Source: an uncultured Chloroflexia bacterium (GTDB lineage Bacteria > Chloroflexota > Dehalococcoidia > SM23-28-2). From it: a DNA stretch of 64,000 nucleotides. Positions 17,468 through 50,747 of the stretch are shown here, one piece after another; position 1 is the first letter of the stretch; every line of letters starts with the position of its first letter. Location: positions 1,979,877 through 2,043,876 of the forward strand of contig OY969584.1 in assembly GCA_963701285.1 (NCBI GenBank), written 5' to 3'. A model generated the notes under the pieces. That model was not told the DNA's origin. It made no database searches and saw only the letters and a program-made list of their open reading frames with translations. Made by a program: the position numbers and the translations under genes.

Positions 17468-17635
17468 CGGGCTTCCTCCAAAGTCGTTCAGGTTGGCGCG
17501 CCGCGTCGTGAAGATCGGCCTCCGCTCCGCGTCCGCGGTTGCCTAGAGTTGTTACGTGTGGCGAGGGGGAGCGGATTGATCGGCCGAGGCGCCTTCGTTG
17601 AGCCCTCGATCCCCCCATGCTACGATACCCCTGCC

Positions 17636-19459: not shown

Positions 19460-19474
19460 GGATGGGGATGGGTT

Positions 19475-19783
19475 TCACGAGCCGAGGAAGCGCATGAGCA
19501 GGATGCTGCCCAACTGGGCGGCCAGCACAAAGAGCCCGGCGACAACCACCTGCCACCAGCTTAGGACAAGGGCTCGCCTTTCCCGTTTCCGCGCGTAGAC
19601 CTCGTCCTCAACGCGGTTGACCCGCGCTTGCACTTGGTCGACCCTCTCTCTTAACCGACCCCACTCTTCGCCGGTGTCGAAAAGATCAGATCGCGGTGAG
19701 GTATCCCACCTCCGCCCCGACCGCGTAGGCGGCACGCGCCGACCTGTCGCGGCGGAAACTGGGTCTCTTCTAACGGCAGCCAT
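19475..19783 (-). CDS. hypothetical small protein with coiled-coil and C-terminal TM helix (102 aa)
   Basis: ORF only; weak RBS. Competes with an overlapping plus-strand ORF 19617..19928. Confidence 0.3.
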   Translation of the reverse strand: MAAVRRDPVSAATGRRVPPTRSGRRWDTSPRSDLFDTGEEWGRLRERVDQVQARVNRVEDEVYARKRERRALVLSWWQVVVAGLFVLAAQLGSILLMRFLGS

Positions 19784-19880
19784 GGCTCATGTGTCCCAAC
19801 TACCTCTACTCTACGTGCAAGCGCGCTTACCACGTCAAGCCACTTTTCCCCGAATAGCCACGAATAATCCAGCAGTTACG

Positions 19881-19929
19881 AAAAAAACGCGGTCATGCCA
19901 ACGGAATTCCCATAAGACGTTGGCATGAC
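19881..19929 (-). terminator. rho-independent terminator on the minus strand (12-bp stem, then U7)
   Basis: Minus-strand read gtcatgccaacg-tcttatgggaattc-cgttggcatgac-cgcg-TTTTTTT. No annotated minus-strand gene ends upstream of it. Confidence 0.5.
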
Positions 19930-20226
19930 GCCCCCCGGTCGGCGTCCCGTCAGATTCACACGTTCACCGCCGCTCATCGGCGCGGCCTCGGCGTAGTGAT
20001 AGAAGCGGGGCTCCATGTCGTCGAAGTCGATGTGCTGCGTGGTGGCACTGGCACGCCTTGGGGTTCTTGGAGCAGTTGCAGTGGTTGCAGTTGAAGGTGC
20101 GTTTGACCGCATCGTCGGACGGCGGACCGTGGGTCGCGTGCCATAGCAGGTTCGCCCAGATGCCGCCACGCCGCGCCTTCGGCGCGGAGCGACCCGCGCC
20201 GCCCTCGTGCTATCCTGGTTCTCGTC

Positions 20227-22584
20227 ATGCCTGAGTCGCTGCTGTGGTGGGGTGCCGTCCAGCTCATCGCCGTCGCCGCCACGCCCATCGCCTTCGCCCT
20301 GTTCCGCTGGCTCCCCGACCGCGGCTACGTCTTCAGCAAGTCGCTGGGCCTGATCCTGGTGGCCTACGTCTTCTGGGTCGGCGGCCTCACCGGCCTCCTC
20401 CCCAACGAGCGCGTCTCCATCCTGGGCATCGTCGGCGTCCTCGCCGCCGTCTCGGCGGTGGTCACCTGGCGGACGCGCGCCGAGCTGGCCGCCTTCCTGC
20501 GAGAGAACTGGTCGTACGTCCTCTTCGCCGAGGCCCTGTTCGCCACTACCTTCGCCGTAGCCGCCGTGCTCCGCTCCTACGTCCCCAACATCGATAGCGG
20601 CGAGAAGCCGATGAATTTCGCCTTCCTCAATGCCCTCCTGCGCGCCGATTCCTTCCCGCCCCAGGACCCCTGGCTCTCCGGCCACACCATCAGCTACTAC
20701 TACTTCGGCCACCTGATGGTCGCCGCCCTGACGAAAGTCACCGCCATCGAGCCGGCCATCGCCTTCAACCTCGGCGCCGTCCTCCTGGCAGCGCTGGCCG
20801 TGGTCAACGTCTTCGCGCTGGTCTATAACCTCGTCGCAGGCAGAGGCGGGGCAACGCGAGCCCTCGTCTTCGGGCTGGTGGCGGTGCTATTCATGGCCAT
20901 CCTCGCCAACCTGGAGGGCCTCTTCGAGCTGCTGGCCGCCCACGGCGTCGGCTCCACGGCCTTCTACAGCCACCTGGGCATCGTGGGGTTGGACGGCCCC
21001 CGTTCCACCGACGCCTGGTACCCCACGGAGCCCTACTGGTGGTGGCGGGTGACCCGCATCGCCAGCAACTTCGACCAGCGCGAGTTCCCGTTCATCGCCT
21101 TCCTGGGCGGCGACATCCACGCCCACGTGAACGCCCTCCCGTTCGACCTCATGGTTCTGGGCCTCGCCTTCAGCCTCCTGCGCTCGCCGCAGGAGCTGAG
21201 CCATCGCTTCTGGCTGCGCAGCCCCTGGTGGCTGGCGGTGATGGCCCTTGTCGTCGGCGGGCTGGGCTTCCTCAACACCTGGGACCTGCCCACCTTCTTC
21301 GCCATCGTAGCGTGCGCCGTGCTGGCCCAGAACTTCCTGCGCGAAGGGCGACTGAACGTCGCCGCCCTCCTCCGCTCGGCGGGCTTCCTGGCGCCGCTGG
21401 CCATTCTGGCCGCCGTCATGTTCCTGCCGTTCTATGTTGGCTTCCACCCTGTTGGCGACGGTATCCAGCCCATCGAGACGGCGATCGGCAACTTCCCCTC
21501 CGTCGCGGCGGCGACGACGCGGCCGCATCACTTTCTCTACACCTGGGCCCCCCTGCTGGTGGTGGTGACCTCGTTCGCGGTCGCCGCCGGAGCCCGCTGG
21601 CGCCGCCCGCGGGCTCCGGCGGCGACCGCGCTGCTGCCCGGCTTGGCGCCCATCGTCATTTGGGCGGGCGCCGTCGGCCTGCGGCGCGGCCTCGGCGGGC
21701 TGCTCGACGAGATCGCTACCCGTGGCGCCAGTTGGGCCACGGCGGCGATGCTCGTCGCCCTGCTGGCCATCGTCGCCTTCGCCCTCGCCCGACACCTCGC
21801 CCAGAGCCGCGAGGAGGAGGGCGCCGACGCCACCACCTTCGCCCTCCTGGCGGCCGGCGTCGGGCTGATGCTCATCCTGGGCATCGAGTTCTTCTGGGCC
21901 CAGGACCCGGTGAACCTGCGCACCAATACCATGTTCCGGCTGGGCTTCCAGGCCTGGGTGCTGCTGGCCGTGGCGGCCGCCTTCGGGCTGTACTACGTGA
22001 CCGCCCGCTGGCGCCCGAACGTCCGCTGGCAGCGGGCCGGCCGCTGGGCCTGGGCGGCGGCGATCGCGGTCGTGCTGGCGGCGGGGCTGGTCTATCCGGT
22101 AACCGTCACCTTCTACCGCACCGAGGGCAATCGGATCGACGGCTACCAGGGCTACCGGTCCCTCGACGGCCTAGCCGCCGTGCGAATCTTCGACCCCAAC
22201 GAATACGAGGCCACCCTCTGGCTGCGAGACAACGTGCATGCGACGCCGGTAGTATTGGAGGCCATCGGAGACCCCAACGGCACCGACGGCCGCATCTCGG
22301 AGCGCACCGGCCTGCCCACCGTCCTGGGCTGGCCCGACCACGAGTACCGCTGGCGGGGCTCCTGGGAGCCCCAGGCCGGCCGCCGCGAGGACGTGCAGTT
22401 TGCGTACCAGACTACCTCGGCCTTGGAAGCAGCAAACGTGCTCGAAAAGTACGGCGTCGAGTACGTCTACGTTGGCGGCGCCGAACGAGACGCCTACGGC
22501 GACGCCGGGATGGCCAAGTTCGCCGAGCTGGGTGAAGTTGTCTTCCAGAACGCTGGCGTGACCATTTATCGCATAGACGGCTGA
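20227..22584 (+). CDS. chlor_Arch_YYY / DUF2298 family polytopic membrane protein, paralog 1 (785 aa); putative GT-C-like glycosyltransferase
   Basis: Shares with paralogs 2-4 the motifs FRWLPDRGYVF, EKPMNFAFLNALLRADSFPPQDPWLSGHTISYYYFGH, NLEGLFELLAAHGVG, WYPTE, EFPFIAFLGGDIHAH, TWDLPTF, LPFYVGFHP, HHFLYTWAPLL, and a C-terminal soluble domain ending GVTIYRIDG. Confidence 0.85.
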   Translation: MPESLLWWGAVQLIAVAATPIAFALFRWLPDRGYVFSKSLGLILVAYVFWVGGLTGLLPNERVSILGIVGVLAAVSAVVTWRTRAELAAFLRENWSYVLFAEALFATTFAVAAVLRSYVPNIDSGEKPMNFAFLNALLRADSFPPQDPWLSGHTISYYYFGHLMVAALTKVTAIEPAIAFNLGAVLLAALAVVNVFALVYNLVAGRGGATRALVFGLVAVLFMAILANLEGLFELLAAHGVGSTAFYSHLGIVGLDGPRSTDAWYPTEPYWWWRVTRIASNFDQREFPFIAFLGGDIHAHVNALPFDLMVLGLAFSLLRSPQELSHRFWLRSPWWLAVMALVVGGLGFLNTWDLPTFFAIVACAVLAQNFLREGRLNVAALLRSAGFLAPLAILAAVMFLPFYVGFHPVGDGIQPIETAIGNFPSVAAATTRPHHFLYTWAPLLVVVTSFAVAAGARWRRPRAPAATALLPGLAPIVIWAGAVGLRRGLGGLLDEIATRGASWATAAMLVALLAIVAFALARHLAQSREEEGADATTFALLAAGVGLMLILGIEFFWAQDPVNLRTNTMFRLGFQAWVLLAVAAAFGLYYVTARWRPNVRWQRAGRWAWAAAIAVVLAAGLVYPVTVTFYRTEGNRIDGYQGYRSLDGLAAVRIFDPNEYEATLWLRDNVHATPVVLEAIGDPNGTDGRISERTGLPTVLGWPDHEYRWRGSWEPQAGRREDVQFAYQTTSALEAANVLEKYGVEYVYVGGAERDAYGDAGMAKFAELGEVVFQNAGVTIYRIDG

Positions 22585-22652
22585 ACCGCCTGAGCCAGGC
22601 CGGACGCAAAAGTAGCTGCGCCGGATCCCGCGTGGTATCCTAGGCCCCGATC

Positions 22653-25283
22653 ATGCCTGACTGGGTGCCGATGGTGGCGAAGGCCCTCTTCTGGTCGCTG
22701 AGCCAGCGGCAGACGTACGCGTGGTGGTTCGCCGTCCTGGTGGTGGGGTTGGCCGCCTTCCCGCTGACTTTCGCCTTCTTCCGCTTCCTTCCCGACCGCG
22801 GCTACGCCTTCACGAAGCCGCTAGGCCTGGCGCTGGCGACCTACCTCCTCTGGATCGGGGCGACCGTGGGGATCCTACCCAACAACCGCGGGTCGATCAT
22901 CCTGATCCTGGTGGGGATGGCCTTGGCCTCTCTTGTAGTGGCGTCCCGCCGCCGCGACGAGCTGCGGGCGTTCATCCGTGAGCGCCTGTACTACATCGTT
23001 CTCATCGAAGCCTTGTTTGCCCTGGCCCTGGTTGTGGCCATCTCCCTGCGCTCCTATGTCACCGAGATCAACTGGAACGAGAAGCCCATGGACTTCGAGT
23101 TCCTCAACAGCATCCTGCGGGCCGATAGTTTCCCCCCCAAGGATGCCTGGCTCTCCGGCCAGACCATCCCCATGTACATCTTCGGCCACCACATGATCGC
23201 CACTCTGACGGAGCTCACCGGCATCTCCTCCGCCATTACCTTCAACCTGGGCGTTGCCCTCATCGCCGCCCTGGCCGCCATCGGGGCCTTCGGCCTGGTC
23301 TACAACCTCCTCATAGTGCGGGCTCGAGCCCGCACCGCCATCCTCTTCGGTCTGGTGGCCGTGGGGCTGCTGCTGGTTCTCGCCAACATCGAGGGTGTGT
23401 TCGAGCTCTTCCGGCGTCACGGGATCGGCAACCAGACGTTCTACAACCTGCTGGGCATGAACGGCCTGGACGGCCCCATGGACTGCGGGAAGTACCCGGG
23501 CAACTGCACCGAGTGGTACCCCACCGAGTGGTTCTCCACCTGGTGGCGAGCTACCCGAGTGGCCACCGACTATGATTGGCGCGAGTTCCCCTCCTTCACC
23601 TTTGTCATGGGTGACCTGCACGCCCATCTGTTATCCATACCTTTCGTGCTGATGGCGATGGGCGTTGCCCTCAACACCCTGCGCTGGCGGGGCCCGCTGG
23701 CCGCTCCTATTTGGGCGGGCATCCCTCAACGGCTGAGGAGTGCCGGCCAACGGTTCGGCCGAAGCAGCACCGGCAGAGCCAGCGATATCGCCGTCTCCTC
23801 GCCGCTACGCCTTCCGTTGCCGGTGTCCTCCGCCGCAGCCGCTGCCTTAGACCTGGGGGCCTCCGCCTGGGAGGGGCTGGCCTTCTGGGTTGCCCATCCA
23901 CTGCGCCTTGTGGCCGCTGGCATCCTGGTGGGTGCTCTGGGCTTCACGAACCTCTGGGACCTGCCGGTCCTCTTCTTCCTGGTCATGGCCATGGCCGCAG
24001 CCCGCAACTACCTGAACGAGGGCCGTCTGAACGCGGCGGTTCTGGGCCAGACCATTGGCTTCGCTATCCCCCTCGCGGGACTAGCGGTTCTCCTCTATGC
24101 CCCCTTCTACCTCGACTTTCACCCGGCGGGCTCAGGCGGCGGCATACTGCCCCTGGAGGTCTACGGGGCACCGGCCGCGGCGAGCCTCGCGACCAAGCCC
24201 CACCACTTCTTCTACTTCTGGGCCACTATCCTCTGGCCGACTGGCAGCTTCGTCGTTGTGGCCCTGGGCAGCTGGCGCCAGAGCAGGTCGATGCTGCGCT
24301 GGGCCATGCTCCCTGCCCTGATTCCTTTCGCCCTTTGGGCCTTCCTGGTGACAGCACACGAAGGGCCGGTGGGGTTTGCGCACGAGGTCGCTGCGCGCCG
24401 GAGTTGGTGGCTCACCCTGGCCTTCCTGCTGGCTGCGGTGACTGTAGCCTCCTTGGCCTTCGGACGGTTCCTCAACGCCAGGGCCAGGGAAGACGAAAAC
24501 CAGCAGAGCATGCTCTTCGCTCTGGCGTTGGCCGGCGTAGGCCTGTTGCTCCTCCTGGGCACAGAGCTGTACTGGGCAAAAGACCCCACGGGCTTTCGCG
24601 CGAACACTGTCTTCCGCTTGAACTATCAGGCATGGATTCTGTTCAGCATCAGCGCCGCCTTCGGCCTTCACTACATCCTGTCCAGCTGGCGACTGCCGGA
24701 CATGCTGGCCTTCACACGTCGATTCGCCTGGGTCGCCATCACCATCGTCCTGCTGGGCGCCGGGCTGGTGTACCCGGTCATCGCCAGCATGAACCGCACC
24801 TACGGCTTCACCGTCAACCCCGAACTGGACGGGTTGGCCTTTGTGAGCCGCAGCGAGCCGGAGGAATATGAGGCTCTCCGCTGGCTGCTGGAGAATGTGA
24901 AAGGGACGCCGGTCATTCTGGAGACGGTGGGCAGCGACTATCTCTTGTTTGGCCGCGTGTCCTCCCGCACGGGTATCCCCACCGTCCTGGGCTGGCCAGA
25001 CCACGAGTGGCGCTGGCGGGGCTCGTGGCAACCGCAAGGCGGCGAGCGGCCGAAGGACGGCTCGTGGTGCCCGTCCGTGAGGTGCTTCGATGTGGAGCGA
25101 GCCTATAAGACTACCTCCCCGGAGGAGGCGCGGGCCATCCTCGAAAAGTACAACGTCGAGTATGTCTACATAGGTGGGCTGGAGCGCCAGCAATACGGGG
25201 AAGAAGGGCTGGCCAAGTTCGCCGACCTGGGCAAGGTCGTCTTCCAGAACGCCGGGGTGACCATCTATCGCATAGGCGGCTAA
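22653..25283 (+). CDS. chlor_Arch_YYY / DUF2298 family membrane protein, paralog 2 (876 aa)
   Basis: Same motif set (FRFLPDRGYAF, EKPMDFEFLNSILRADSFPPKDAWLSGQTIPMYIFGH, GDLHAH, LPFYLDFHP, GVTIYRIGG). Extra Ser/Ala/Pro-rich loop insert. Confidence 0.85.
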   Translation: MPDWVPMVAKALFWSLSQRQTYAWWFAVLVVGLAAFPLTFAFFRFLPDRGYAFTKPLGLALATYLLWIGATVGILPNNRGSIILILVGMALASLVVASRRRDELRAFIRERLYYIVLIEALFALALVVAISLRSYVTEINWNEKPMDFEFLNSILRADSFPPKDAWLSGQTIPMYIFGHHMIATLTELTGISSAITFNLGVALIAALAAIGAFGLVYNLLIVRARARTAILFGLVAVGLLLVLANIEGVFELFRRHGIGNQTFYNLLGMNGLDGPMDCGKYPGNCTEWYPTEWFSTWWRATRVATDYDWREFPSFTFVMGDLHAHLLSIPFVLMAMGVALNTLRWRGPLAAPIWAGIPQRLRSAGQRFGRSSTGRASDIAVSSPLRLPLPVSSAAAAALDLGASAWEGLAFWVAHPLRLVAAGILVGALGFTNLWDLPVLFFLVMAMAAARNYLNEGRLNAAVLGQTIGFAIPLAGLAVLLYAPFYLDFHPAGSGGGILPLEVYGAPAAASLATKPHHFFYFWATILWPTGSFVVVALGSWRQSRSMLRWAMLPALIPFALWAFLVTAHEGPVGFAHEVAARRSWWLTLAFLLAAVTVASLAFGRFLNARAREDENQQSMLFALALAGVGLLLLLGTELYWAKDPTGFRANTVFRLNYQAWILFSISAAFGLHYILSSWRLPDMLAFTRRFAWVAITIVLLGAGLVYPVIASMNRTYGFTVNPELDGLAFVSRSEPEEYEALRWLLENVKGTPVILETVGSDYLLFGRVSSRTGIPTVLGWPDHEWRWRGSWQPQGGERPKDGSWCPSVRCFDVERAYKTTSPEEARAILEKYNVEYVYIGGLERQQYGEEGLAKFADLGKVVFQNAGVTIYRIGG

Positions 25284-25297
25284 GCCACCTCCATGCT

Positions 25298-27697
25298 ATG
25301 CTAGGCGCCGTCATGCCGGAGCCGGTGGCGTGGTGGTTGGTTCTGGAGGTGATGGGCGCCATCGCCTTCCCCATCGCCTTCGTCCTCTTCTCTTCCCTGC
25401 CCGATCGGGGCTATGCCTTCGCCAAGGTCTTCGGCCTGCTGTTCGTGGGCTATGGCCTGTGGATGGGCGGCGTTGCCGTATCGTTGCCCAACAACCGCTG
25501 GTCCATCTTCGCCCTGATGGGCCTGGTCCTGTTGGTCAGCCTCGCTCTGGCCTTCCGGCGTCGCCGTGAAATGGGCCGCTGGCTGGTCGCCAACTGGCGC
25601 TACCTCCTCGTGGCCGAGGTCGTCTTTCTTGTGGCCTTCGCCTTCTTCGGCCTGCTGCGCGCCTACATGCACGACATCAACTACGGCGAGAAGCCGCAGA
25701 ACCTGGCCTTCCTAAACGCCGTGCTCCGCAGCGATACCCTCCCCGCCTACGACCCCTGGTACTCCGGCCACAACCTGAGCTACTACTACCTGGGCCACCT
25801 GACGGTGGCGGTCTTGGCTCGCCTCACCAGCACACCCGCCAGCATCGCTTTCAACCTGGGCTCGGCCACTATCGGCGCGCTGGCGGCGGTGGCCGTGTTC
25901 GGCATCGGCTACAACCTGGTGGCCGGCGGCGGCCGCCTTGTGCGAGGAGTAGTGGTCGGCGCCGTCGCGGTCGTCCTGCTGCTCATCGTGTCCAACCTGG
26001 AGGGCCTCTTCGAGCTGCTGGCCGCCCACGGCGTCGGGAACCAGGCTTTCTACGATTGGTGGCAGATCCACGGCCTCGACGGCCCCCGCAGCACCAGCAG
26101 GTGGTATCCCACCGAGTTCTGGTGGTGGGGGAGGGCCGCTTTCGTGGCCGACACTACCGACGGCCGCGAGTTCCCGTTCACCAGCTTCCTTTTCGGCGAC
26201 ATCCACGCCCACACCGCTGCCTTACCCTTCGTCCTCCTGTCGGTGGGCCTCGCCCTGAACGTCGCCCGCTCGCCCGAGGGGCTGGACTGGCGCTCCTGGG
26301 CCCGCCGGCCGGGGGTGCTGCTGCTGGCGGCGCTGGCCCTGGGCAGCCTCGCCTTCGTCGACGCCGTCGACCTGCCCACCTACGGGGCGCTGGTGGCGCT
26401 GGCGGCGTTCGTGGCCTGCTACGCCGGCCAGCGCCGCCCGGCGATGAGCGCCGCCGGGCGCGCCCTTGCGTACATGGCGCCGCTGGGGATCGTCGCCGTG
26501 CTCCTCTACCTACCGTTCTACCTGGACTTCCATCCGGTGGGCCAGGGCGTCCAGCCTCTGGAGGCAGCCACCCGCGCCAGCTGGGCCACCCTGCGGGGCA
26601 CAGTGACGCGGCCCACCCACTTCCTCATCCTCTGGGGGCCACCCGTTTGGCTGGCCTGCACCATGGCCGGCGTCGCCCTGGCCGCGCTGGGGCGCCGGGC
26701 CATCTCGCGGGCGGCCGTGGGCTGGGCCTCCCTGGCCTGGGCCGTCCCCGTCGGCCTGTGGGCGATGATGGTCCTTTTGCGGCGGGCGCCGTGGGGCCTG
26801 GCCGATGAGATCGCCACACGCGGCTACGCCTGGATCACCGCCGCTTTCCTGGCAGCGTTGGTCGGCGCCCTAGCCCTGGCTCTCGGCCGCCACCTCCGCG
26901 CCGCGCGCGATGAGCCAGCCCCCGACCGGAGCCTCCTCTTCGCCCTAACGGCGACGGGTCTGGGCGCGCTCCTCCTCCTGGGCATGGAGTTCTACTGGAT
27001 GCAGGACCCCCTCGGCTACCGCCAGAACACGACGCTCCGGCTGGGCTACCAGGCGTGGGTGCTTTTGGCGGTGGGCGGGGCCTTCGCGTTGTACTATCTG
27101 GTGTCGCGCTGGCGGCCGGCAAGCCTGCCCTCCGCCCTGGGACGCGCCGGCTGGACGGCGGGCAGCGTCATCGTGCTGGGGGCAGCCCTCATCTTCCCCG
27201 TGGCCGCCACGTTCTACATCGGTAACGACTTCCAGGACCCCCGCGTGCTGGATGGCCTGGCCTTCGAGCGCCTCCAGAACCCCGACGAGTATGCCGCTGT
27301 CCGCTGGCTCCAGGAGAACATCCAGGGCGCGCCGGTCGTGCTGGAGGGCGTGGGCACGGACTACGACGCCAACGCGGCGCGCGTCTCCACCCGCACGGGC
27401 TTGCCCACCGTCCTGGGCTGGCCCCAGCACGAGTACCGCCTGCAGGGCACCTGGGATCCCATAACTGAGCGCCAGCAAGACGTGGAGACGGCCTACAACA
27501 CGACCTCGCTGGCAGAGGCCCAGGCCATCCTGGACAAGTACGACGTGCAGTACGTCTACGTGGGCGACTTCGAGCGCGAGACGTACGACGAGGCGGGGCT
27601 GGCCAAGTTCGCCGCGCTGGGGCAGGTGGTCTTCAAGCAGGACAAGGTCACGATCTACGAGGTGACGCGCGGGGAAGCGGCTGCTAGTGAGCGATGA
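25298..27697 (+). CDS. chlor_Arch_YYY / DUF2298 family membrane protein, paralog 3 (799 aa)
   Basis: Same motif set (LPDRGYAF, EKPQNLAFLNAVLRSDTLPAYDPWYSGHNLSYYYLGH, GDIHAH, LPFYLDFHP, KVTIYEV). Start may be M6 (MPEPVAWW). Confidence 0.85.
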   Translation: MLGAVMPEPVAWWLVLEVMGAIAFPIAFVLFSSLPDRGYAFAKVFGLLFVGYGLWMGGVAVSLPNNRWSIFALMGLVLLVSLALAFRRRREMGRWLVANWRYLLVAEVVFLVAFAFFGLLRAYMHDINYGEKPQNLAFLNAVLRSDTLPAYDPWYSGHNLSYYYLGHLTVAVLARLTSTPASIAFNLGSATIGALAAVAVFGIGYNLVAGGGRLVRGVVVGAVAVVLLLIVSNLEGLFELLAAHGVGNQAFYDWWQIHGLDGPRSTSRWYPTEFWWWGRAAFVADTTDGREFPFTSFLFGDIHAHTAALPFVLLSVGLALNVARSPEGLDWRSWARRPGVLLLAALALGSLAFVDAVDLPTYGALVALAAFVACYAGQRRPAMSAAGRALAYMAPLGIVAVLLYLPFYLDFHPVGQGVQPLEAATRASWATLRGTVTRPTHFLILWGPPVWLACTMAGVALAALGRRAISRAAVGWASLAWAVPVGLWAMMVLLRRAPWGLADEIATRGYAWITAAFLAALVGALALALGRHLRAARDEPAPDRSLLFALTATGLGALLLLGMEFYWMQDPLGYRQNTTLRLGYQAWVLLAVGGAFALYYLVSRWRPASLPSALGRAGWTAGSVIVLGAALIFPVAATFYIGNDFQDPRVLDGLAFERLQNPDEYAAVRWLQENIQGAPVVLEGVGTDYDANAARVSTRTGLPTVLGWPQHEYRLQGTWDPITERQQDVETAYNTTSLAEAQAILDKYDVQYVYVGDFERETYDEAGLAKFAALGQVVFKQDKVTIYEVTRGEAAASER

Positions 27698-28499
27698 TCT
27701 CCTCGCCGCCGTCCACGCCGATGACGTTGCCCGTCACCCAGGCCGTCCGCTCATCAGATAGCGCCGCGATGGCCCGGGCCACGTCCTCCGTGGTAGTGGT
27801 GCGGCCGCTTGGGTTGAACTGGCCCGCCAAGGTCAGCATTTGCAGGGCGCCGGGGATCTTGCGCAGGGCCGGCGTATCAGTGATGCCGGCCCGAATGGCG
27901 TTGACGGCGATCCCCCGCGAGGCCAGCTCCACGGCCAGGTGGCGGACATGGTATTCCAGGGCCGCCTTGGCGCAGCCCACCGGCCCGTATTGCGGCAAGA
28001 CGCGAGTGGAGCCGGAGCTGGTCATGGCGAACACCTTGCTCCCCGGCCCCAGGAGCCCCCGATAGACCATGCCTTGCACCCAGTAGACCAGGCTGTGCGC
28101 CATCACGTCCAGGGTCATCTCCATCTGGGCCTGGCTCGCCGCCTCCTTGGGGTTGGTCGGCACGTAAGAGCGTAGCGTCCCGAAGGCTAAGGAGTGCATC
28201 ATCACCCGCACGGTGGCCGGCGGGTTCTCCGCCCCCAACCGCTCCTGCATCGCGTCCAGGATCTGGGCCCGCTTCTTGGCATCGGCGGCGTTCATGTTGA
28301 AGAAGATGGCCTCGCGGCCGAGCTCCTGGGCCTGGGCCACCACTCGCTGGGCGTTGGGCAGGGTGGACCGCAGGTCGAGATGCACGCCGAAGATGTGCAT
28401 GCCGTTGCGCGCCAGCTCCAGGGCGGCGGCTGCCCCCATGCCGCTGGACGCTCCCAGGATGAGGGCCCAGCGATCGCGCAAACCGTTGCCGTCGGCCAT
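27684..28499 (-). CDS. SDR-family oxidoreductase (enoyl-reductase-like Rossmann protein)
   Basis: 271 aa; LILGASSGMGAAAALELARNG glycine-rich NAD(P) motif and an SDR core. Lies 3 nt downstream of galU on the same strand. Confidence 0.7.
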   Translation of the reverse strand: MADGNGLRDRWALILGASSGMGAAAALELARNGMHIFGVHLDLRSTLPNAQRVVAQAQELGREAIFFNMNAADAKKRAQILDAMQERLGAENPPATVRVMMHSLAFGTLRSYVPTNPKEAASQAQMEMTLDVMAHSLVYWVQGMVYRGLLGPGSKVFAMTSSGSTRVLPQYGPVGCAKAALEYHVRHLAVELASRGIAVNAIRAGITDTPALRKIPGALQMLTLAGQFNPSGRTTTTEDVARAIAALSDERTAWVTGNVIGVDGGEEIIAH

Positions 28500-28502
28500 G
28501 TC

Positions 28503-29408
28503 TCACGCCCCCTGGCCGGCCGCCGGGCCGGGCCGGACGCCCTCGCGGGCCAGCAGCTCGCGCAGATAGGCCACCACCTCCGGCGCCAGGTCCGGCCGCC
28601 GCAGGGCCATCGCTAGGTTGGCCTTCAGGAAGCCGATGGGCCGCCCAACGTCGAATCGCTCGCCGGCGAAGCGACAGGCGTAGACCGATTCGACCTCCAG
28701 CAGCAAACCCAGGCTGTCCGTAAGCTGGATCTCGCCGTTCGCCCCCGGCGGCGTGCGCTCGATGATCGGGAAGATGGCCGGTGTCAGCACCAGGCGTCCC
28801 ACCGCCCCCAGGTCCGACTTCGCCTCGGCTGCCGGCGGCTTCTCCACGATGCTTAGCACCTGATAGACACGCTCCTCCAACTCCTTGGGCTCGATGACGC
28901 CGTAGTGGGGCAGCTCCTCCCGCGGCAAACGCTCCACCGCCACCACGCTCCCGCCGTAGCGGTCGTAGACGTCCATGAGCTGGCCGACGGCCGGGACGTC
29001 ACTTTGAATGATGTCGTCAGGGTAGAACAGGGCGAAGGGCTCGTCGCCGATGAGGTGGCGGGCAACCATTACGGCGTCGCCGATGCCCCGCCGCTCCTTC
29101 TGTCGGACGAAGGCGATGTCGGCCAGCTCCGCCAGCCGCCGCGTCTCCTCCGCCTGCTGATGGCACCCCTTCTCCCCAAGGAAGGCCTCCAGGTCTGCCA
29201 GGCGGTCGAAGTGATCCTCTACCGCCCGCTTGTTGACCGCCGTGACCATGATGATCTGCCGGAGGCCAGCCTGCACCGCCTCCTCCACCACGTACTGGAT
29301 GGCCGGCTTGTCCACCAGAGGAAGCATCTCCTTGGGGACGGCCTTCGTGGCGGGCAGGAAGCGAGTGCCGTAACCTGCCGCGAGGATGACCGCCTTGCGA
29401 ACGCGCAT
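28503..29408 (-). CDS. galU: UTP--glucose-1-phosphate uridylyltransferase
   Basis: MRVRKAVILAAGYGTRFLPATKAVPKEMLPLVDKPAIQYVVEEA...; canonical GalU. Confidence 0.9.
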   Translation of the reverse strand: MRVRKAVILAAGYGTRFLPATKAVPKEMLPLVDKPAIQYVVEEAVQAGLRQIIMVTAVNKRAVEDHFDRLADLEAFLGEKGCHQQAEETRRLAELADIAFVRQKERRGIGDAVMVARHLIGDEPFALFYPDDIIQSDVPAVGQLMDVYDRYGGSVVAVERLPREELPHYGVIEPKELEERVYQVLSIVEKPPAAEAKSDLGAVGRLVLTPAIFPIIERTPPGANGEIQLTDSLGLLLEVESVYACRFAGERFDVGRPIGFLKANLAMALRRPDLAPEVVAYLRELLAREGVRPGPAAGQGA

Positions 29409-45588: not shown

Positions 45589-45618
45589 TTGCCCCAGGGC
45601 AAAGGCGGGCGCTATAAT
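45589..45618 (+). promoter_or_regulatory. candidate promoter of the gtrA-GT2-ftsY-DUF2298 operon (TTGCCC-N18-TATAAT)
   Basis: TTGCCCcaggg at 45589; consensus TATAAT at 45613-45618. Architecture duplicated at 55676-55705. Confidence 0.4.
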
Positions 45619-45661
45619 GCCTTCGCTTTCACAGGGAGGCGGCTGCCGCGACAGCTCGAAG

Positions 45662-46216
45662 ATGCGCAGACCTCGTTGCTTCTCGGAATCGCCCGTGGCT
45701 GTGAGCCCAGGGTATGGGCGGCTCGCTGCCTGGCGCGACCACGCCGCCGCCAGACTGGCGGCCTCCCCCACATTCGTCCGGTTCCTCATCGTTGGCGCCA
45801 TCGGCTACCTAGTCAACCAGTTCTTTCTCTACCTCCTCTACGATTCGCCCGCCTTCCCCGTTCTGCCCGCAAAGGACACCAGCGCGCGCATCCTCTTCTT
45901 CACCCACCCCGACGTCCGGCTGCTCATCGCCACCGTCGTGGCGGTGGAACTAGCCATCCTCTCCAACTTCCTCTGGCACAACCTCTGGACCTTCAGCGGT
46001 TACACCCGTCGCCTGCCTATGCTCCTGCGCTTCGTCGCCTTCAACGTCACCTCCATCGGCAGCCCCATCATCTCGGTCACCACCGTCAACGTCCTGACCC
46101 CCCGCTTCGGCGTCAACGTCTACGCCGCCAACTCCATCGGCATCGCGCTGGGCATGACCTGGAACTGGGTGTGGAACACCCAGCTCATCTGGCGCAAGGG
46201 TGGAGAGCCCATCTGA
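45662..46216 (+). CDS. GtrA-family membrane protein (polyprenyl-phosphate-sugar flippase family)
   Basis: FVRFLIVGAIGYLVNQFFLYLL ... ELAILSNFLWHNLWTF (GtrA hallmark). Start is either ATG 45617 or 45662. Confidence 0.7.
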   Translation: MRRPRCFSESPVAVSPGYGRLAAWRDHAAARLAASPTFVRFLIVGAIGYLVNQFFLYLLYDSPAFPVLPAKDTSARILFFTHPDVRLLIATVVAVELAILSNFLWHNLWTFSGYTRRLPMLLRFVAFNVTSIGSPIISVTTVNVLTPRFGVNVYAANSIGIALGMTWNWVWNTQLIWRKGGEPI

Positions 46217-46229
46217 CGCTCCCCCGCTC

Positions 46230-47000
46230 ATGACCAGCGAACCACGCCTCTCCCTGGTGATCCCCGCCTACAACGAGGCGCTTAACCTGCGACGCGGCAT
46301 CCTCCAGCAGGTGGCCGACTACCTGGCGAGCCGCTCCTACGCCTGCGAGGCGCTGGTGGTGGACGACGGCAGCACAGACGAGACGGCATCGCTGGCGGAG
46401 GCGTTCGCCCAGGAGCACCCATGCTTCAGCCTGCTACGCGAGCGTCATCGGGGAAAGGCCATGGCGGTGCGCGCTGGCGTGCTCGCCGCCCGTGGCCGCT
46501 ACGTCCTCTTCGCCGACCTGGACCTTTCGACGCCCCTTTCCTACATCCACCCCTTCGTGGAGCTGCTGGACGGCGGCTGGGACATCGTCATCGCCTCCCG
46601 CGAGGCGAAGGGCGGCGCCCGCCTGGGGGCGCCTGTCCAGCGGCGCGCTATGGGCAGGGTGTTCAGCCTGCTGGTGCGCCTGCTCCTGCTCCCCGGCATC
46701 TACGATAGCCAGTGCGGGTTCAAGGGCTTCCGCCGCGAGGTGGCCCACGACCTCTTCCGCAGCCTGCGCCTGTTCCGGGGCGAGGCGAGCGAGGTGAGCG
46801 GGCCGCGAGTCACCGCCTTCGACGTGGAGCTCCTCCTCCTGGCCCGCAAGAAGGGCTACACCATCCGCGAGGTGCCAGTGCTCTGGCGTCACGTCGAGAC
46901 CAAACGGGTGAACCCTGTGCTGGACTCCTATCGTATGCTCCGCGAGGTGCTCATCGTCTGGTGGAACGACCGCCGCGGCCTATACGGCCGGCCGCGGTGA
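46230..47000 (+). CDS. GT2-family glycosyltransferase (polyprenyl-phosphate sugar synthase, GtrB/DPM1-like)
   Basis: LSLVIPAYNEALNL..VVDDGSTDETA..VLFADLDLSTP (DxD), with C-terminal amphipathic/TM segments. Start is ATG 46230 or GTG 46200. Confidence 0.8.
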   Translation: MTSEPRLSLVIPAYNEALNLRRGILQQVADYLASRSYACEALVVDDGSTDETASLAEAFAQEHPCFSLLRERHRGKAMAVRAGVLAARGRYVLFADLDLSTPLSYIHPFVELLDGGWDIVIASREAKGGARLGAPVQRRAMGRVFSLLVRLLLLPGIYDSQCGFKGFRREVAHDLFRSLRLFRGEASEVSGPRVTAFDVELLLLARKKGYTIREVPVLWRHVETKRVNPVLDSYRMLREVLIVWWNDRRGLYGRPR

Positions 47001-47012
47001 GACCCATAGCGC

Positions 47013-48026
47013 TTGATCCACGCTTGCGGGCAATGCTATGATCCATCCGACCGCCCCCGGCACGGGAGGTTGTATCTGTTCAAACGGCTGGGCCACTCCC
47101 GAGAGTCCGAAGACAAGACCGCCGATGCCCTCGACCGCACCCGCCGCACCTGGTTCCGGAGGGTAGCGGGGCTTTTCGAACGTTCCCACGTCGACGACCA
47201 GCTCTGGGACGAACTGGAGGAGCTTCTGATCGGCGCCGACGTCGGCGTCGCAACGACCGTTGGCCTCATCGAACGTCTGCGCACCCGCGCCAAGGAAGAG
47301 GGGATGAAGCAGCCGGCCGCGGTGCGCCAGGCCCTGAAGCAGGAGCTGACGACCATCCTCGCCGTGGACGGTGGCGTCGGCCGGCTCTGGGGCGAGACGG
47401 GAACCTTTCCACCGAAGCCGGCCGTTATATTGGTAGTGGGCGTCAACGGCACCGGCAAGACAACCAGCGTCGCCAAGCTGGCCGCAGCCCTGCAGGCTGA
47501 GGGCAAGCGGGTGACGCTGGCCGCCGCCGACACCTTCCGCGCCGCCGCCATTGACCAGCTCTGCCAGTGGGGCCAGCGAGTCGGGGTGGAGGTGGTGGCC
47601 CACCAGCAGGGGGCCGATCCTGCTGCGGTCGTTTTCGACGCCCTCAGCGCTGCGCAGAGCCGCGGCGCCGACGTGCTCATCATCGATACGGCCGGCCGCC
47701 TTCACACGAAGGTCAACCTGATGGAGGAGCTGCGCAAGATCCAGCGCATCATTCAGCGCAAGGATCCGTCGGCGCCACACGAGGTGCTGCTGGTGCTGGA
47801 CGCTACCATGGGCCAGAACGCCCTCCTCCAGGCCAAGTACTTCGCCGAGGCCGTGCCGGTGACCGCCATCCTTCTGGCCAAGCTCGACGGCACCGGCAAG
47901 GGGGGCATCGTCTTCGCTGTGTGCGATCAGTTGGGCATCCCCGTGCGCTTCGTGGGCACCGGCGAGGGCGAGGACGACCTGGCCCCCTTCCAGGCAGACG
48001 AGTTCGTGGAGGCACTCTTCGCCTAG
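47013..48026 (+). CDS. ftsY: signal recognition particle receptor FtsY (start codon uncertain, TTG in track)
   Basis: [34 protein letters not shown]...[20 protein letters not shown]...DTAGRLH; SRP GTPase. Confidence 0.85.
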
Positions 48027-48056: not shown

Positions 48057-50747
48057 ATGAGAGAAACGATCATCTGGTGGTCGGCCATTCAGGTTGTGGG
48101 GCTTGTCGCCTTCCCGATGACCTTCGCCTTCTTCCAGCGCCTGCCGGACCGCGGCTACGCCTTTGCCAAGCCCCTGGGCCTGGTCTTCCTGGGCTACATC
48201 CTCTGGATGGGGGCCACCATCGGCCTGTTCCCCAACGGGCGCGGTGCCGTCATCCTCATCCTGGTCGTCCTGGCCATCGTGTCGCTCATTGTGGCCAGCC
48301 GCCGCTGGCGGGAGATGGGCGATTTCCTGGCCCGCAACTGGACCTACGTCCTCTTCGTCGAGGTGCTGTTTGCGGTTGCCCTTGTCGTCGCCGCCTACCT
48401 CCGCTCCTACGTCTCCGAGATCGCCTGGACGGAGAAGCCCATGGACCTGGCCTTCCTGAACGCCGTCGTGCGCGGCGACAAGTTCCCTGTCCAGGACCCC
48501 TGGCTGGCCGGCCATTCCGTCCCCCTCTACTACTTTGGCCACGTGATGATCGGTGCCCTAACCTTGCTCACCGGTCTGCGTACCGGCGTCACCTTCAACC
48601 TCGGTCTGGCCCTCATCGGCGCCCTCGCTGCCATCGCCATCTTCGGCCTCGTGTACAACCTGCTCATCGGGCGCGGGCGGCCGCGGGCGGCCTTAGTCTT
48701 CGGTATGGTAGCGGTGGGCCTGCTGCTGGTCCTGTCCAACATGGAGGGCCTCTTCGAGCTGTTGGCCCGCCACGGCGTGGGAAACGCCCGCTTCTACTCA
48801 CTGGTCGGCATCGACGGCCTGAACGGCCCCACCGACTGCAAGACGAATGCCGGCGATTGCACAGACTGGTATCCTACCGCCTGGTGGTTCTGGTGGCGGG
48901 CGACCCGCATCGCCACCCAGTGGGACTGGCGAGAGTTCCCCTTCTTCACCTTCCTCCTGGGGGACCTCCACGCTCATCTGATGTCGATACCGTTCGTGCT
49001 GATGGCCTTGGGCATTGCCCTGAACACCCTGCGCTGGCAGGGGCCGCTGGTAGGCGGGCTATGGCCAGGCGTCGCCTCGTCGCTGAATCGCCTGCGGGAC
49101 AGCTTCCAGGGCCGGTTGCCCGGCACGACGGCCCTTTCGTCGGTGACGCCGATCCCGCCCGGGGCCTATCCCGTCGCTGCGGAGCGCAGTCTGGGCGTCT
49201 TAGCCTCGGCCTGGGAGGGCCTTACTTTCTGGATCGCCTGTCCGGCCCGCTTCCTGGCCATGTCGGTGCTGCTGGGCTCCCTGGGCTTCATCAACTCCTG
49301 GGACCTGCCGACCTTTCTGGGCTTGGTCGCCTTCATGGCCGGCGTCCGCAACTATCTTGTCGAAGGCCGCCTGACCGCAAGCGTCGTCGGCCGGACGCTG
49401 GGCTTCACCGTGCCCCTAGCGGTCCTGTCCTTCGTCCTGTACCTGCCGTTCTACCTGAACTTCCACCCCGTGGGCGGCGCCATCTTGCCCATCCAGCTCG
49501 CCACCATCAAGGGCTGGCCTCCGATAGAGACGATGGCCACGCGGCCCCATCACTTCGCCTACCTGTGGGCCACCATTCTCTGGCCTACCGTGACCTTCGC
49601 CGTTGCCGCGCTGGGGCCTTGGAAGCTGAACCGCTCCATCCTGCGCTGGGCGCTGCTGCCCGCCTTCGTGCCGTTCCTTGCCTGGCTATTCCTGGTCACC
49701 GCCCACCAGGGGCCGCTGGGCCTCATCGACGAGATCCGGATCCGTGGTGTCTGGTGGGTTACCTTGATCTTCCTGCTGGTGACGGTGACCGTGCCCGCCC
49801 TCGCCTTCGGCCGCTATCTGCTAAGGGCCAGGGACAAGGAGAACGGGGAGCGCGAAGACGACGAGAACCTGGCCTTCGTCCTCGCCTTGGGCGGAGTGGC
49901 CATCCTCATCCTGCTGGGCACCGAGCTGTATTGGGTAGAGGACCCGGTGGGTGTGCGCTCCAACACCGTCTTCCGCCTGAACTACCAATCGTGGATCATC
50001 CTCGCCGTCAGCGGCGCCGTGGGCCTGTACTACATCACCTCGCGCTGGCGGCTCAGCACCGTCCTGACCTCGGTCCCGCGCCTGCTGTGGGTGGGTGGCA
50101 CGATTTTCTTCTTCGGCGCCGGCCTGGTCTACCCGGTCATCGCCAGCATGAACCGCACCGTCGGCTTCACCACCCACCCCTACCTCGACGGCCTGGCCGC
50201 CATGCAGGCTGGCAACCCGTCCGAGTTTGAGGCCGTGCGCTGGCTGCAGGACAACGTCAAGGGAACACCGATCATTCTGGAGGCCGTGGGCGGAGACTAC
50301 AGCTCCGCCGGCCACGGCCGCATCTCGTCCCGCACCGGCCTGCCTACTCTGCTGGGCTGGCCTGACCACGAGTACCGCTGGCGCAACTCGTGGGAGGTGC
50401 AGGGCACCAAGATGCCGGATCGCGCCGAAGGAAACGGCGCCCCGGCGGGGTCCTGCCACGACGGTCTCGACAACGACGGCGACGGCACCATCGACGCCCA
50501 GGACACCGACTGCCGTATCGACCTAGACGTGAAGGAGGCCTACCAGACAACCAGCCCGGAGCGGGCTCGCACGATCCTGGAGACGTACGGCGTCCAGTAC
50601 GTCTACGTTGGATCGCTGGAGCGCGAGACCTACGGCGAGGACGGGATGAGCAAGTTCGCCTCCTTCATGGAGGTGGCCTTCCAGAATAGCGGCGTCACCA
50701 TCTACAGCATGCCTGGCACGGGGCAGATCTCCGTGCGCGCGCCCTGA
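48057..50747 (+). CDS. chlor_Arch_YYY / DUF2298 family membrane protein, paralog 4 (896 aa) with EF-hand/dockerin-like Ca loop insert
   Basis: Motif set FQRLPDRGYAF, EKPMDLAFLNAVVRGDKFPVQDPWLAGHSVPLYYFGH, GDLHAH, LPFYLNFHP, GVTIYSM, plus insert CHDGLDNDGDGTIDAQDTDC. Confidence 0.85.
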   Translation: MRETIIWWSAIQVVGLVAFPMTFAFFQRLPDRGYAFAKPLGLVFLGYILWMGATIGLFPNGRGAVILILVVLAIVSLIVASRRWREMGDFLARNWTYVLFVEVLFAVALVVAAYLRSYVSEIAWTEKPMDLAFLNAVVRGDKFPVQDPWLAGHSVPLYYFGHVMIGALTLLTGLRTGVTFNLGLALIGALAAIAIFGLVYNLLIGRGRPRAALVFGMVAVGLLLVLSNMEGLFELLARHGVGNARFYSLVGIDGLNGPTDCKTNAGDCTDWYPTAWWFWWRATRIATQWDWREFPFFTFLLGDLHAHLMSIPFVLMALGIALNTLRWQGPLVGGLWPGVASSLNRLRDSFQGRLPGTTALSSVTPIPPGAYPVAAERSLGVLASAWEGLTFWIACPARFLAMSVLLGSLGFINSWDLPTFLGLVAFMAGVRNYLVEGRLTASVVGRTLGFTVPLAVLSFVLYLPFYLNFHPVGGAILPIQLATIKGWPPIETMATRPHHFAYLWATILWPTVTFAVAALGPWKLNRSILRWALLPAFVPFLAWLFLVTAHQGPLGLIDEIRIRGVWWVTLIFLLVTVTVPALAFGRYLLRARDKENGEREDDENLAFVLALGGVAILILLGTELYWVEDPVGVRSNTVFRLNYQSWIILAVSGAVGLYYITSRWRLSTVLTSVPRLLWVGGTIFFFGAGLVYPVIASMNRTVGFTTHPYLDGLAAMQAGNPSEFEAVRWLQDNVKGTPIILEAVGGDYSSAGHGRISSRTGLPTLLGWPDHEYRWRNSWEVQGTKMPDRAEGNGAPAGSCHDGLDNDGDGTIDAQDTDCRIDLDVKEAYQTTSPERARTILETYGVQYVYVGSLERETYGEDGMSKFASFMEVAFQNSGVTIYSMPGTGQISVRAP

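Follow-up and report, generated by a model that had tools for sequence, protein, structure and literature searches.

Four DUF2298 paralogs of a Chloroflexota bacterium, three of them in a tandem array, are candidate GT-C-fold glycosyltransferases acting outside the cytoplasm

The DNA analyzed here, a stretch of 64,000 nucleotides from an uncultured Chloroflexia bacterium (the window in the following), contains three consecutive plus-strand genes for large membrane proteins at positions 20227..22584 (paralog 1, 785 aa), 22653..25283 (paralog 2, 876 aa), and 25298..27697 (paralog 3, 799 aa counted from the first ATG). An earlier note had described three adjacent genes of 785-876 aa with nothing between them, and the ORF coordinates agree exactly: the intergenic gaps are 68 and 14 nt long and contain no gene. 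The GC3 values of the array genes are 0.84-0.91. Translation of paralog 3 probably starts at M6 (25313), yielding 794 aa, because this start is used in the public protein P0015 (794 aa, same public contig) and corresponds in the alignment to the "MPE" N-terminus of paralog 1. A fourth paralog (48057..50747, plus strand, 896 aa) lies 20 kb away, as had also been noticed, together with genes for a GtrA-family protein and a GT2 glycosyltransferase. Synteny and the phylogenetic tree identify it as the ftsY-linked "core" copy.

The proposed membership in the DUF2298/TIGR03662 family was verified by HMM searches, in which all four copies scored far above both cut-offs (PF10060 gathering threshold 27.8 bits; TIGR03662 curated cut-off 300.25 bits) over the full length. 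The array proteins reached 288-339 bits with PF10060 in the Pfam HMM search (E about 1e-85 to 1e-101), i.e., E values of 8.8e-101, 1.9e-85, and 5.9e-89 for paralogs 1, 2, and 3, and 476, 470, and 453 bits with TIGR03662, respectively. The values for paralog 4 were 298 bits (E 1.5e-88) and 433 bits. The family is large: at E<=1e-3 it has 10,560 cluster representatives. The close relatives are all Chloroflexota MAGs. By their profile scores the four genes are ordinary family members, and the specific feature of this genome is a lineage-specific expansion to four paralogs.

Direct reading of the start regions confirmed that none of the four genes is preceded by a Shine-Dalgarno sequence, while thrS, a gene for the ATPase of an ABC transporter, and further genes of the window do have one. 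All three array genes carry a conserved extended -10-like element 8-10 nt ahead of the ATG. The element GTGCTATCCTGG (20207..20218, plus strand) ends 8 nt 5' of the paralog 1 ATG, the same element recurs as GTGGTATCCTAG (22632..22643, plus strand) and ends 9 nt 5' of the paralog 2 ATG, and ATGCTATGCTAG (25293..25304, plus strand), with one mismatch, ends 8 nt 5' of the paralog 3 ATG at 25313. Paralog 4 does not have this 12-mer. Only the longer 12-mer is specific; TATCCT by itself is not significantly enriched in the window (14 matches versus 8.9 expected). The position of the elements suggests that the array transcripts are leaderless or near-leaderless and that each gene has its own element, which would explain the missing Shine-Dalgarno sequences.

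It had been thought that galU, encoding UDP-glucose pyrophosphorylase, directly follows the array. This did not hold, because the gene for a FabL-like SDR (27684..28499, minus strand) intervenes, which is convergent with the array and shares 14 nt with the end of paralog 3, and galU itself (28503..29408; TIGR01099 334.8 bits versus 326.8) is on the minus strand, opposite to the array. The SDR gene occupies the same position at the compared loci L081 and L001, and the synteny of galU is conserved in two relatives.

The genes for a putative donor synthesis flank paralog 4 only, not the array. The cluster, which is encoded on the plus strand throughout, contains a small membrane protein of the GtrA/DPMS_TM family (45617..46216; PF04138 E 7e-17), a candidate polyprenyl-P-sugar flippase or synthase anchor, and a GT2 glycosyltransferase with a GT-A fold (46200..47000; PF00535 E 5e-26). 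The latter has weak partial NCBIfam matches to DolP-hexose transferase, ArnC, PgfS, and PpgS, all below cut-off; it is a candidate donor synthase because these weak best matches are polyprenyl- or dolichyl-phosphate sugar synthases. The gene for the SRP receptor, ftsY (47013..48026; PF00448 E 4e-75), directly precedes paralog 4. Downstream are genes for a PMT_2-type GT-C protein (50757..52502) with a weak TIGR03663 match, in which NES replaces the DES of the family, for a PMT_2/TIGR03663 (Agl23-family) GT-C protein (52499..55657; 257.6 bits versus a cut-off of 126) with an HHDES motif and a C-terminal fusion to an NHL beta-propeller (E 2e-39), and for a flippase-like membrane protein with profile matches to LPG_synthase_TM/TIGR00374 (55705..56772).

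The gene order ftsY, DUF2298, PMT_2 is conserved across Chloroflexota and is found, for example, in the culturable Thermoflexus hugenholtzii (locus L037). In other Chloroflexota, 39 of 87 DUF2298 genes adjoin ftsY, and the next gene after DUF2298 (98 genes, other genomes) encodes a PMT_2 protein in 52 cases and another DUF2298 protein in 16. Natural fusions also exist, in which PMT_2 is joined to two DUF2298 modules, or two DUF2298 modules are joined to each other, with or without additional TPR repeats. SRP RNA and lepA are further neighbors of DUF2298 genes in this genome.

The four paralogs can be aligned from end to end with identities of 41-57%. Paralog 2 is nearest to paralog 4 (57%); both carry Cys-pair inserts in outside regions, and one of their cytoplasmic loops contains a shared Arg-rich insert of about 75 aa. 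The dense motif set that the earlier note had ascribed to the three array copies is only partly shared: LPDRGY, EKP, GDxHAH, and PFY are indeed present in all four, while the alignment revealed that YYYFGH, WDLP, and GVTIYRI vary. Copy 2 has MYIFGH and copy 4 LYYFGH in place of YYYFGH, copy 3 has VDLP in place of WDLP, and GVTIYRI is replaced by KVTIYEV in copy 3 and by GVTIYSM in copy 4. According to the TIGRFAM description, the YYYxG motif gives the family its name, Chlor_Arch_YYY. At this site copy 1 has YYYFG, copy 3 YYYLG, copy 2 MYIFG, and copy 4 LYYFG; of these positions, Y158 (the middle Tyr) and G161 alone are invariant in the family. All of the 22 residues that are invariant across 78 homologs are retained in each of the four paralogs. 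The orthologs of paralogs 1 (at locus L081), 2, and 3 show 77, 73, and 83% identity at dN/dS values of 0.24, 0.24, and 0.19, respectively. These values per orthologous pair (0.19-0.24) indicate purifying selection. The array represents an old expansion specific to this lineage, and the four paralogs are individually conserved and look catalytically intact.

The AlphaFold2 model of paralog 1 has a pLDDT of 93.9 and exhibits a GT-C membrane fold as well as the C-terminal CC structural unit that is a feature of STT3/AglB/PglB. We infer an architecture of 16 transmembrane helices with both termini outside, in agreement with the prior expectation of a GT-C-type protein with more than 12 helices. 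Three extra N-terminal helices would be followed by a 13-helix GT-C core (TM4-TM16) and a C-terminal domain of alpha/beta type, about 150 aa long, which is predicted to have the fold of the oligosaccharyltransferase (OST) "CC unit". This topology is based on the model and on three additional types of evidence. The density of K+R is 0.20 in predicted inside loops versus 0.063 in outside loops (78 homologs), paired cysteines are found only in the loop 227-299 and the C-terminal domain, and the linkers of natural head-to-tail double-module fusions are devoid of a transmembrane helix. In addition, the homolog P0126 has a signal-peptide-like extension ahead of TM1. Consequently, E126, D147, and the D296-x-H298-x-H300 motif are predicted to be on the outer face, and the extracytoplasmic placement of GDxHAH, proposed for verification before, is in agreement with charge bias, Cys pairs, and fusions. 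By the same three types of evidence LPDRGY would be cytoplasmic, and its D31 is only 87% conserved; LPDRGY was therefore rejected as an equivalent of the catalytic "PDE-x-RY"-like motif of ArnT/PMT-type enzymes.

Large polytopic proteins might also be transporters or permeases with no tie to glycosylation, and the Foldseek search with the predicted structure did retrieve MFS, MATE, and ABC transporters, albeit as weak matches at ranks 14 and below. The same fold comparison identified a GT-C fold and thereby effectively refuted this explanation, which we regard as very improbable.

The predicted outside loops contain the invariant residues E126, D147, H298, R565, and N567. E126 and D147 belong to the loop 118-176, which is predicted to form two short helices (127-139 and 160-172). 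D296, H298, and H300, conserved to 99, 100, and 99%, lie where the second large outside loop ends. The C-terminal domain holds 8 of the 22 invariant residues, including E678, H705, E706, and E753; residues 702-706 read WPDHE, corresponding to a family-wide W-P-G-H-E with invariant H705 and E706. In enzymes of the GT-C superfamily, the catalytic acidic residue is located in the core's first extracytoplasmic loop, where two short helices are found, and STT3/AglB/PglB proteins have a second DXD-type metal motif in EL2. In AfAglB the metal ligands are Asp47 in EL1 and Asp161 and His163 of the "Asp-His-His" motif in EL2 (PMC8342417). In form, the D-x-H-x-H motif is comparable to Asp161-His162-His163, the metal-binding motif of AfAglB, and by loop position and motif form E126, D147, D296, and H298 may correspond to catalytic and metal-binding residues of GT-C enzymes.

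These residues also bear on the possibility that DUF2298 proteins have a GT-C fold and do not transfer sugars, but are scramblases or flippases, PIGU-like subunits that present a substrate, or glycan polymerases or ligases, while the PMT_2 neighbors are the real transferases. Scramblase/flippase activity has a precedent in Agl23, a PMT_2-type protein of TIGR03663: in proteoliposomes it is reported to have moved lipid-linked glycans, and in yeast it rescued an rft1-delta mutant (PMC11182771). Moreover, the PMT_2 neighbors have retained a catalytic-type H[HY]DES motif, and thus an intact DE motif, in 52 of 57 cases, and could be the GT-C component of the paralog 4 cluster instead of DUF2298. However, the 22 invariant residues, many of which are acidic or histidines and lie in outside loops and a soluble outside domain, resemble an active site and would be superfluous for scrambling, and the cluster already contains GtrA-like and flippase-like proteins. 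Therefore, we consider a role without sugar transfer improbable, though less so than transport.

A further possibility is that the proteins represent a very divergent branch of STT3/AglB/PglB, i.e., protein glycosyltransferases that act on secreted or S-layer proteins as they emerge from the membrane. They would transfer either single sugars or an entire glycan, taken en bloc off a polyprenyl-diphosphate carrier, and the paralogs would be isoforms differing in protein or sequon specificity. The architecture is the same, with a 13-helix GT-C core and a CC-unit-like C-terminal domain, the D-x-H-x-H motif that ends the second outside loop resembles the Asp-His-His of AfAglB EL2, and 8 invariant residues are in the C-terminal domain, by which OSTs bind the acceptor. 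Protein-binding modules, namely TPR repeats, are found at the C-terminus of some family members, and the genes adjoin ftsY, SRP RNA, and lepA. On the other hand, the Pfam search yielded no STT3 match (E<=0.01), WWDYG is absent and W-P-x-H-E is in its place, and the C-terminal domain alone, compared with PDB chains, fell short of AglB (3vu0, E 0.43, not significant). The EL5-equivalent loop (486-502), which corresponds to the TIXE/SVSE loop, has no conserved TIXE-like Glu, as E495 is present in 28 of 78 homologs; a TIXE-like "DEI" in this loop was discarded as a motif, because it is kept among the four paralogs and not family-wide. Furthermore, the neighboring genes for GT2 and GtrA are indicative of a single sugar with a monophosphate link and not of a diphosphate-linked oligosaccharide. 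Taken together, this explanation is unlikely, yet slightly ahead of a role without sugar transfer. The same low likelihood applies to its most far-reaching form, in which DUF2298 would be an unrecognized sister type of OSTs, widespread in Chloroflexota and present here as four isoforms, with W-P-x-H-E recognizing the acceptor and the repeated occurrence of the family next to ftsY, here also near SRP RNA and lepA, reflecting a coupling to co-translational membrane targeting.

The reading that we favor, with a probability of about 0.65, is that the four paralogs are GT-C-fold glycosyltransferases of the DUF2298/TIGR03662 family that act extracytoplasmically. A lipid-linked-sugar-dependent GT-C enzyme had been suggested at the outset, and the predicted fold, the topology, the invariant outside residues, and the context of paralog 4 support this suggestion. 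As had been stated, the family has no known function: the searchable literature on DUF2298, PF10060, TIGR03662, and the "YYY domain" holds no functional study and no experimental datum for any member. For donor, acceptor, and catalysis we infer the following scheme. The GT2 enzyme (46200) would attach a sugar to polyprenyl phosphate at the cytoplasmic face, UDP-glucose from galU being one possible source, and the GtrA-like and/or flippase-like proteins would flip the lipid-linked sugar. Each DUF2298 enzyme would then pass the sugar to an acceptor at the outer face, using E126 and D147 of the first large outside loop, D296-x-H298-x-H300, and E678, H705, E706, and E753 of the C-terminal domain. 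Most likely, the paralogs would differ in acceptor or linkage, form hetero-oligomers, as the natural double-module fusions suggest, or catalyze consecutive steps with the neighboring PMT_2-type GT-C proteins. The most likely target of their decoration is the cell surface of this bacterium.

If the GT-C assignment holds, together with the OST-like architecture, the topology defined here, and the few candidate catalytic residues, DUF2298 turns from a domain of unknown function into a testable enzyme family. The genes would also point to a surface-glycosylation pathway in Chloroflexota, the envelopes of which are poorly understood. As the conserved partner belongs to the Agl23 family, whose use of Dol-P-hexose is unsettled, DUF2298 enzymes may be candidates for the outer-face transferase in Agl23-type pathways.

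Several known systems invite comparison. With STT3/AglB/PglB (GT66), no sequence homology to DUF2298 was detected: a search of all PDB chains with the profile of the 78 aligned sequences retrieved no solved GT-C structure and no OST chain, only noise from transmembrane bias and TIM barrels, and the C-terminal domain had no match in Pfam. In addition to WWDYG, the DK/MI and TIXE motifs are missing, the three extra N-terminal helices would put the N-terminus outside, and, judging by the genomic context, the sugar would come from a polyprenyl-monophosphate donor. In contrast to PMT/ArnT/PMT_2 proteins, including TIGR03663 (Agl23), DUF2298 proteins lack a DE motif following the first core helix and have a different C-terminal domain; the Pfam search yielded no PMT_2 match, and a local hhalign comparison with 57 PMT_2/TIGR03663 sequences from the compared loci resulted in a probability below 2%. 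The mycobacterial Emb/Aft arabinofuranosyltransferases (embCAB operon) use decaprenyl-P-arabinose; they have no sequence similarity to DUF2298, and phylum and presumed donor differ. Multi-component transmembrane glycosylation systems are defined by an enzyme with GT-A fold (GT2), a protein of the GtrA family, and a GT-C-fold protein (PMC8035078). In comparison with the GtrA/GtrB/Gtr-type and CsbB/GtcA/YfhO systems, this set is present at the paralog 4 locus only, where ftsY lies inside the cluster and the three-gene array is 20 kb off, with DUF2298 and/or PMT_2 as the putative GT-C component in place of YfhO or a Gtr-type protein.

Four genes in the window belong to DUF2298/TIGR03662 as ordinary members. 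This catalogued family, to which no function is assigned, comprises 10,560 representatives at E<=1e-3. Three of the genes form a tandem array on the plus strand, copy 1 at 20227-22584 (785 aa), copy 2 at 22653-25283 (876 aa), and copy 3 at 25298-27697 (799 aa), with gaps of 68 nt and 14 nt, respectively. Because the GC content of the window is about 67%, third-position GC tells real genes from shadow ORFs, and it is 0.84-0.91 for the three ORFs. All three cover the PF10060/DUF2298 profile in full (E values of 8.8e-101, 1.9e-85, and 5.9e-89), and they reach 476, 470, and 453 bits with TIGR03662 ("Chlor_Arch_YYY", curated cut-off 300 bits). The agreement of ORFs and profile scores shows that the array described in the earlier note is real and well past chance. 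The predicted distant fourth paralog was also recovered (copy 4, 48057-50747, plus strand, 896 aa, 433 bits), and thus all four proteins exceed the TIGR03662 cut-off. They can be aligned end to end with 41-57% identity, and each has retained all 22 residues that are invariant in an alignment of 78 family members. The proposed common motif set was only partly borne out, as several of the quoted motifs vary among the copies: YYYFGH is confined to copy 1, copy 3 has YYYLGH at this site and VDLP instead of WDLP, and GVTIYRI is found in copies 1 and 2 only. The true start of copy 3 is probably the ATG at 25313, because this agrees with the public protein P0015 (794 aa) and with the "MPE" start of copy 1. 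Copies 2 and 4, unlike copies 1 and 3, share about 75 aa of Arg/Ser/Pro-rich sequence, which is inserted into a predicted cytoplasmic loop after TM7 (23610-23850 in copy 2).

The earlier note had suggested a GT-C-type fold, with transporters as the competing possibility. Sequence comparisons did not reveal a relationship: a PDB search with the profile of the 78 homologs yielded only noise, and a local profile-profile comparison of DUF2298 with the neighbouring PMT_2/TIGR03663 family gave a probability below 2%. Copy 1 was modelled with AlphaFold2 from the 78-sequence alignment, with a mean pLDDT of 93.9 and a pTM of 0.95. When the model was compared with the PDB using Foldseek, the top 13 hits were all GT-C enzymes, including the C-mannosyltransferase DPY19, AglB, STT3, AftA, PglB, and Pmt4, and transporters ranked after them with probabilities of at most 0.16 and TM-scores of about 0.1. 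Therefore, the model resembles GT-C enzymes rather than transporters, and the GT-C-type fold is supported. The soluble C-terminal domain of copy 1 (about 635-785) matches a structure by itself, at the fold level only (a sequence profile of the domain yielded an E value of 0.43 against 3vu0). The matched structure comprises the CC unit alone, which is common to the C-terminal domains of all AglB and PglB oligosaccharyltransferases (OSTs) and has been described as indispensable (PMC3703281).

Loops were taken from the helices of the model, and Lys and Arg residues were counted over the 78 homologs. A topology with 16 helices and both termini outside results in a Lys plus Arg density of 0.20 in inside loops versus 0.063 in outside loops. 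Cysteine pairs are restricted to two predicted outside regions, loop 227-299 (14 sequences) and the C-terminal domain (13 sequences). Natural fusions, found by an exhaustive profile search, are an independent support for this topology. The proteins P0123 (2,434 aa, PMT_2 plus two DUF2298 modules) and P0126 (1,722 aa, two DUF2298 modules) contain a hydrophilic linker without a TM helix between the first C-terminal domain and the second TM1, and thus N- and C-termini must share one side; a signal-peptide-like extension ahead of TM1 in P0126 fits an outside N-terminus. The model would place the GT-C core in TM4-TM16, after three extra helices, and the 13 helices of this core equal the number in OSTs (PMC8342417). 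Copy 4 contains a Cys-flanked acidic insert in its C-terminal domain, C-HDGLDNDGDGTIDAQDTD-C (residues 799-820, 50451-50516), which fits an extracytoplasmic location. It resembles a DxDxDG-type calcium-binding loop and has a weak NCBIfam match to "acidic double-disulfide repeat" (25 bits, under the cut-off).

Candidate active site residues of copy 1 are found in the predicted outside loops. Two short helices and the invariant residues E126, D147, W149, and Y158 are located in the first large loop (118-176), and the second (227-299) ends with D296 (99% conserved), H298 (100%), and H300 (99%), directly ahead of the next helix. D353, D560, R565, and N567 are also predicted to be outside. In AfAglB, the catalytic metal ligands are Asp47 of the extracytoplasmic loop EL1 and Asp161 and His163 of the "Asp-His-His" motif in EL2 (PMC8342417). 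The D-x-H-x-H of DUF2298 occupies a loop position analogous to this EL2 motif, and by analogy the two might be equivalent. Eight of the 22 invariant residues reside in the C-terminal domain (E678, G695, H705, E706, Y727, G750, E753, and Y757), which suggests that this domain may participate in the reaction, like the CC unit in OSTs. The LPDRGY motif is unlikely to be catalytic, because it is in a predicted cytoplasmic loop and its D31 is only 87% conserved.

The array was compared with a relative (L081/L082, protein P0004), which has the same neighbourhood of lepA, three DUF2298 genes, an SDR gene and galU, both on the minus strand, SRP RNA, a G5/3D protein gene, and ksgA. Orthology is one-to-one, with 77%, 73%, and 83% identity for copies 1, 2, and 3 versus 41-57% between paralogs within a genome, and the dN/dS values are 0.24, 0.24, and 0.19. 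In a neighbor-joining tree of 94 homologs, calculated without bootstrap, copies 1-4 and their orthologs form one clade, in which copy 3 branches first, then copy 1, and then copy 4 with copy 2. Together with the retained invariant residues, this shows that the array is an old, lineage-specific expansion of an ftsY-linked core gene and that selection maintains each copy; DUF2298 pairs of Anaerolineae go back to a separate, older duplication. Copies 1 and 2 have exchanged places between the two genomes (20227-25283 in the window, with the array order 1-2-3, and 7394-12412 in L081, with the order 2-1-3). Both genomes keep the junction that follows the "type 2" gene, which places the breakpoints at a conserved element upstream of the genes.

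This element comprises about 30 nt before each ATG of the array (20197-20226, 22622-22652, and 25283-25312), conserved across paralogs with only about 50% protein identity and across genomes. Its core, GTG[CG]TAT[CG]CT[AG]G, resembles an extended -10 element and ends 8-10 nt 5' of the ATG. It precedes array-type DUF2298 genes in three genomes (L081, 7373-7384; L001, 1468-1479 and 4852-4863, in addition to the window) and was found neither at the other 79 loci nor before copy 4. The sequence suggests that the array genes may be transcribed from individual promoters into mRNAs that are leaderless or have very short leaders, or, alternatively, that the element might be a shared regulatory site. 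The reported absence of Shine-Dalgarno motifs is correct, and for the array genes leaderless transcripts or very short leaders are its likely reason.

In contrast to the earlier description, galU (28503-29408, TIGR01099, 334.8 bits, cut-off 326.8) is not immediately downstream of the array; a FabL-like SDR gene (27684-28499) intervenes, and both are minus-strand genes convergent with the array. Upstream, lepA (17549-19459) is followed by a 770 nt gap (19460-20226) that has no high-GC3 ORF and no Rfam match. On the minus strand, the gap includes an ORF of 102 aa (19475-19783) with a coiled-coil-like stretch and, at the C-terminus, a hydrophobic helix. An SRP RNA gene (30016-30279, plus strand, RF01854, 213 bits) follows 2.3 kb downstream of the array, as it does in L081.

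Copy 4 is part of a cluster in which it is preceded by genes for a GtrA-family protein (45617-46216), a GT2 (46200-47000), whose best matches, weak and all under the cut-off, are dolichyl/undecaprenyl-phosphate sugar synthases, and the SRP receptor FtsY (47013-48026), 30 nt past which copy 4 begins. The proximity of SRP RNA, ftsY, and lepA could hint at a coupling to membrane protein biogenesis, or be a coincidence. Copy 4 is followed by genes for a PMT_2-type protein (50757-52502), a PMT_2/TIGR03663 protein (52499-55657, 257.6 bits, cut-off 126), and an LPG_synthase_TM/TIGR00374 flippase-like protein. The DE of motifs of the H[HY]DES kind is catalytic in PMT/ArnT-type enzymes, and H[HY]DES is kept in 52 of 57 TIGR03663/PMT_2 members of Chloroflexota. 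The N-E-S of the 50757-52502 product at this site (DES in its L049 ortholog) raises the possibility of a copy with altered catalysis. The 52499-55657 product is an Agl23-family GT-C protein fused at its C-terminus to an NHL beta-propeller (about 280 aa), which is probably an extracytoplasmic acceptor-binding domain. The namesake of TIGR03663, Agl23 of Haloarcula hispanica, is a putative hexose-P-dolichol flippase, with activity in a flipping assay on proteoliposomes (PMC11182771).

A survey of 80 loci from other Chloroflexota genomes revealed a PMT_2/TIGR03663 gene directly after 52 of 98 DUF2298 genes and another DUF2298 gene after 16 of 98; ftsY directly precedes 39 of 87, and tandem pairs or triplets are present at 15 of 82 loci. 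P0136 and P0170, which together with P0123 and P0126 form a group of giant fusions of 1,700-2,750 aa, contain two DUF2298 modules and C-terminal TPR repeats. The fusions suggest that DUF2298 modules may act in pairs and with PMT_2-type proteins. In light of the PMT_2-DUF2298-DUF2298 and DUF2298-TPR fusions, DUF2298 and PMT_2 proteins would physically cooperate, and the acceptor could possibly be a protein.

Taken together, predicted structure, topology, and context support the interpretation as GT-C glycosyltransferases; donor, acceptor, and catalysis itself we infer. For a large family that is still uncharacterised, this amounts to a sound and useful lead to its function, although it will not surprise the specialist. 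Pfam may already include DUF2298 in its GT-C clan. By predicted fold DUF2298 proteins belong to the GT-C superfamily, and OSTs are closest by architecture. However, they can be placed neither in GT66, because they do not match the STT3 model, have W-P-x-H-E in place of the WWDYG motif, and lack a conserved TIXE-like Glu, nor in PMT_2, whose sequence-based definition they do not fit either. Tandem GT-C paralogs of the embCAB type are an organisational precedent for the array, and among multi-component glycosylation systems, it is the GT-C component that DUF2298 proteins would most resemble in their mode of action.
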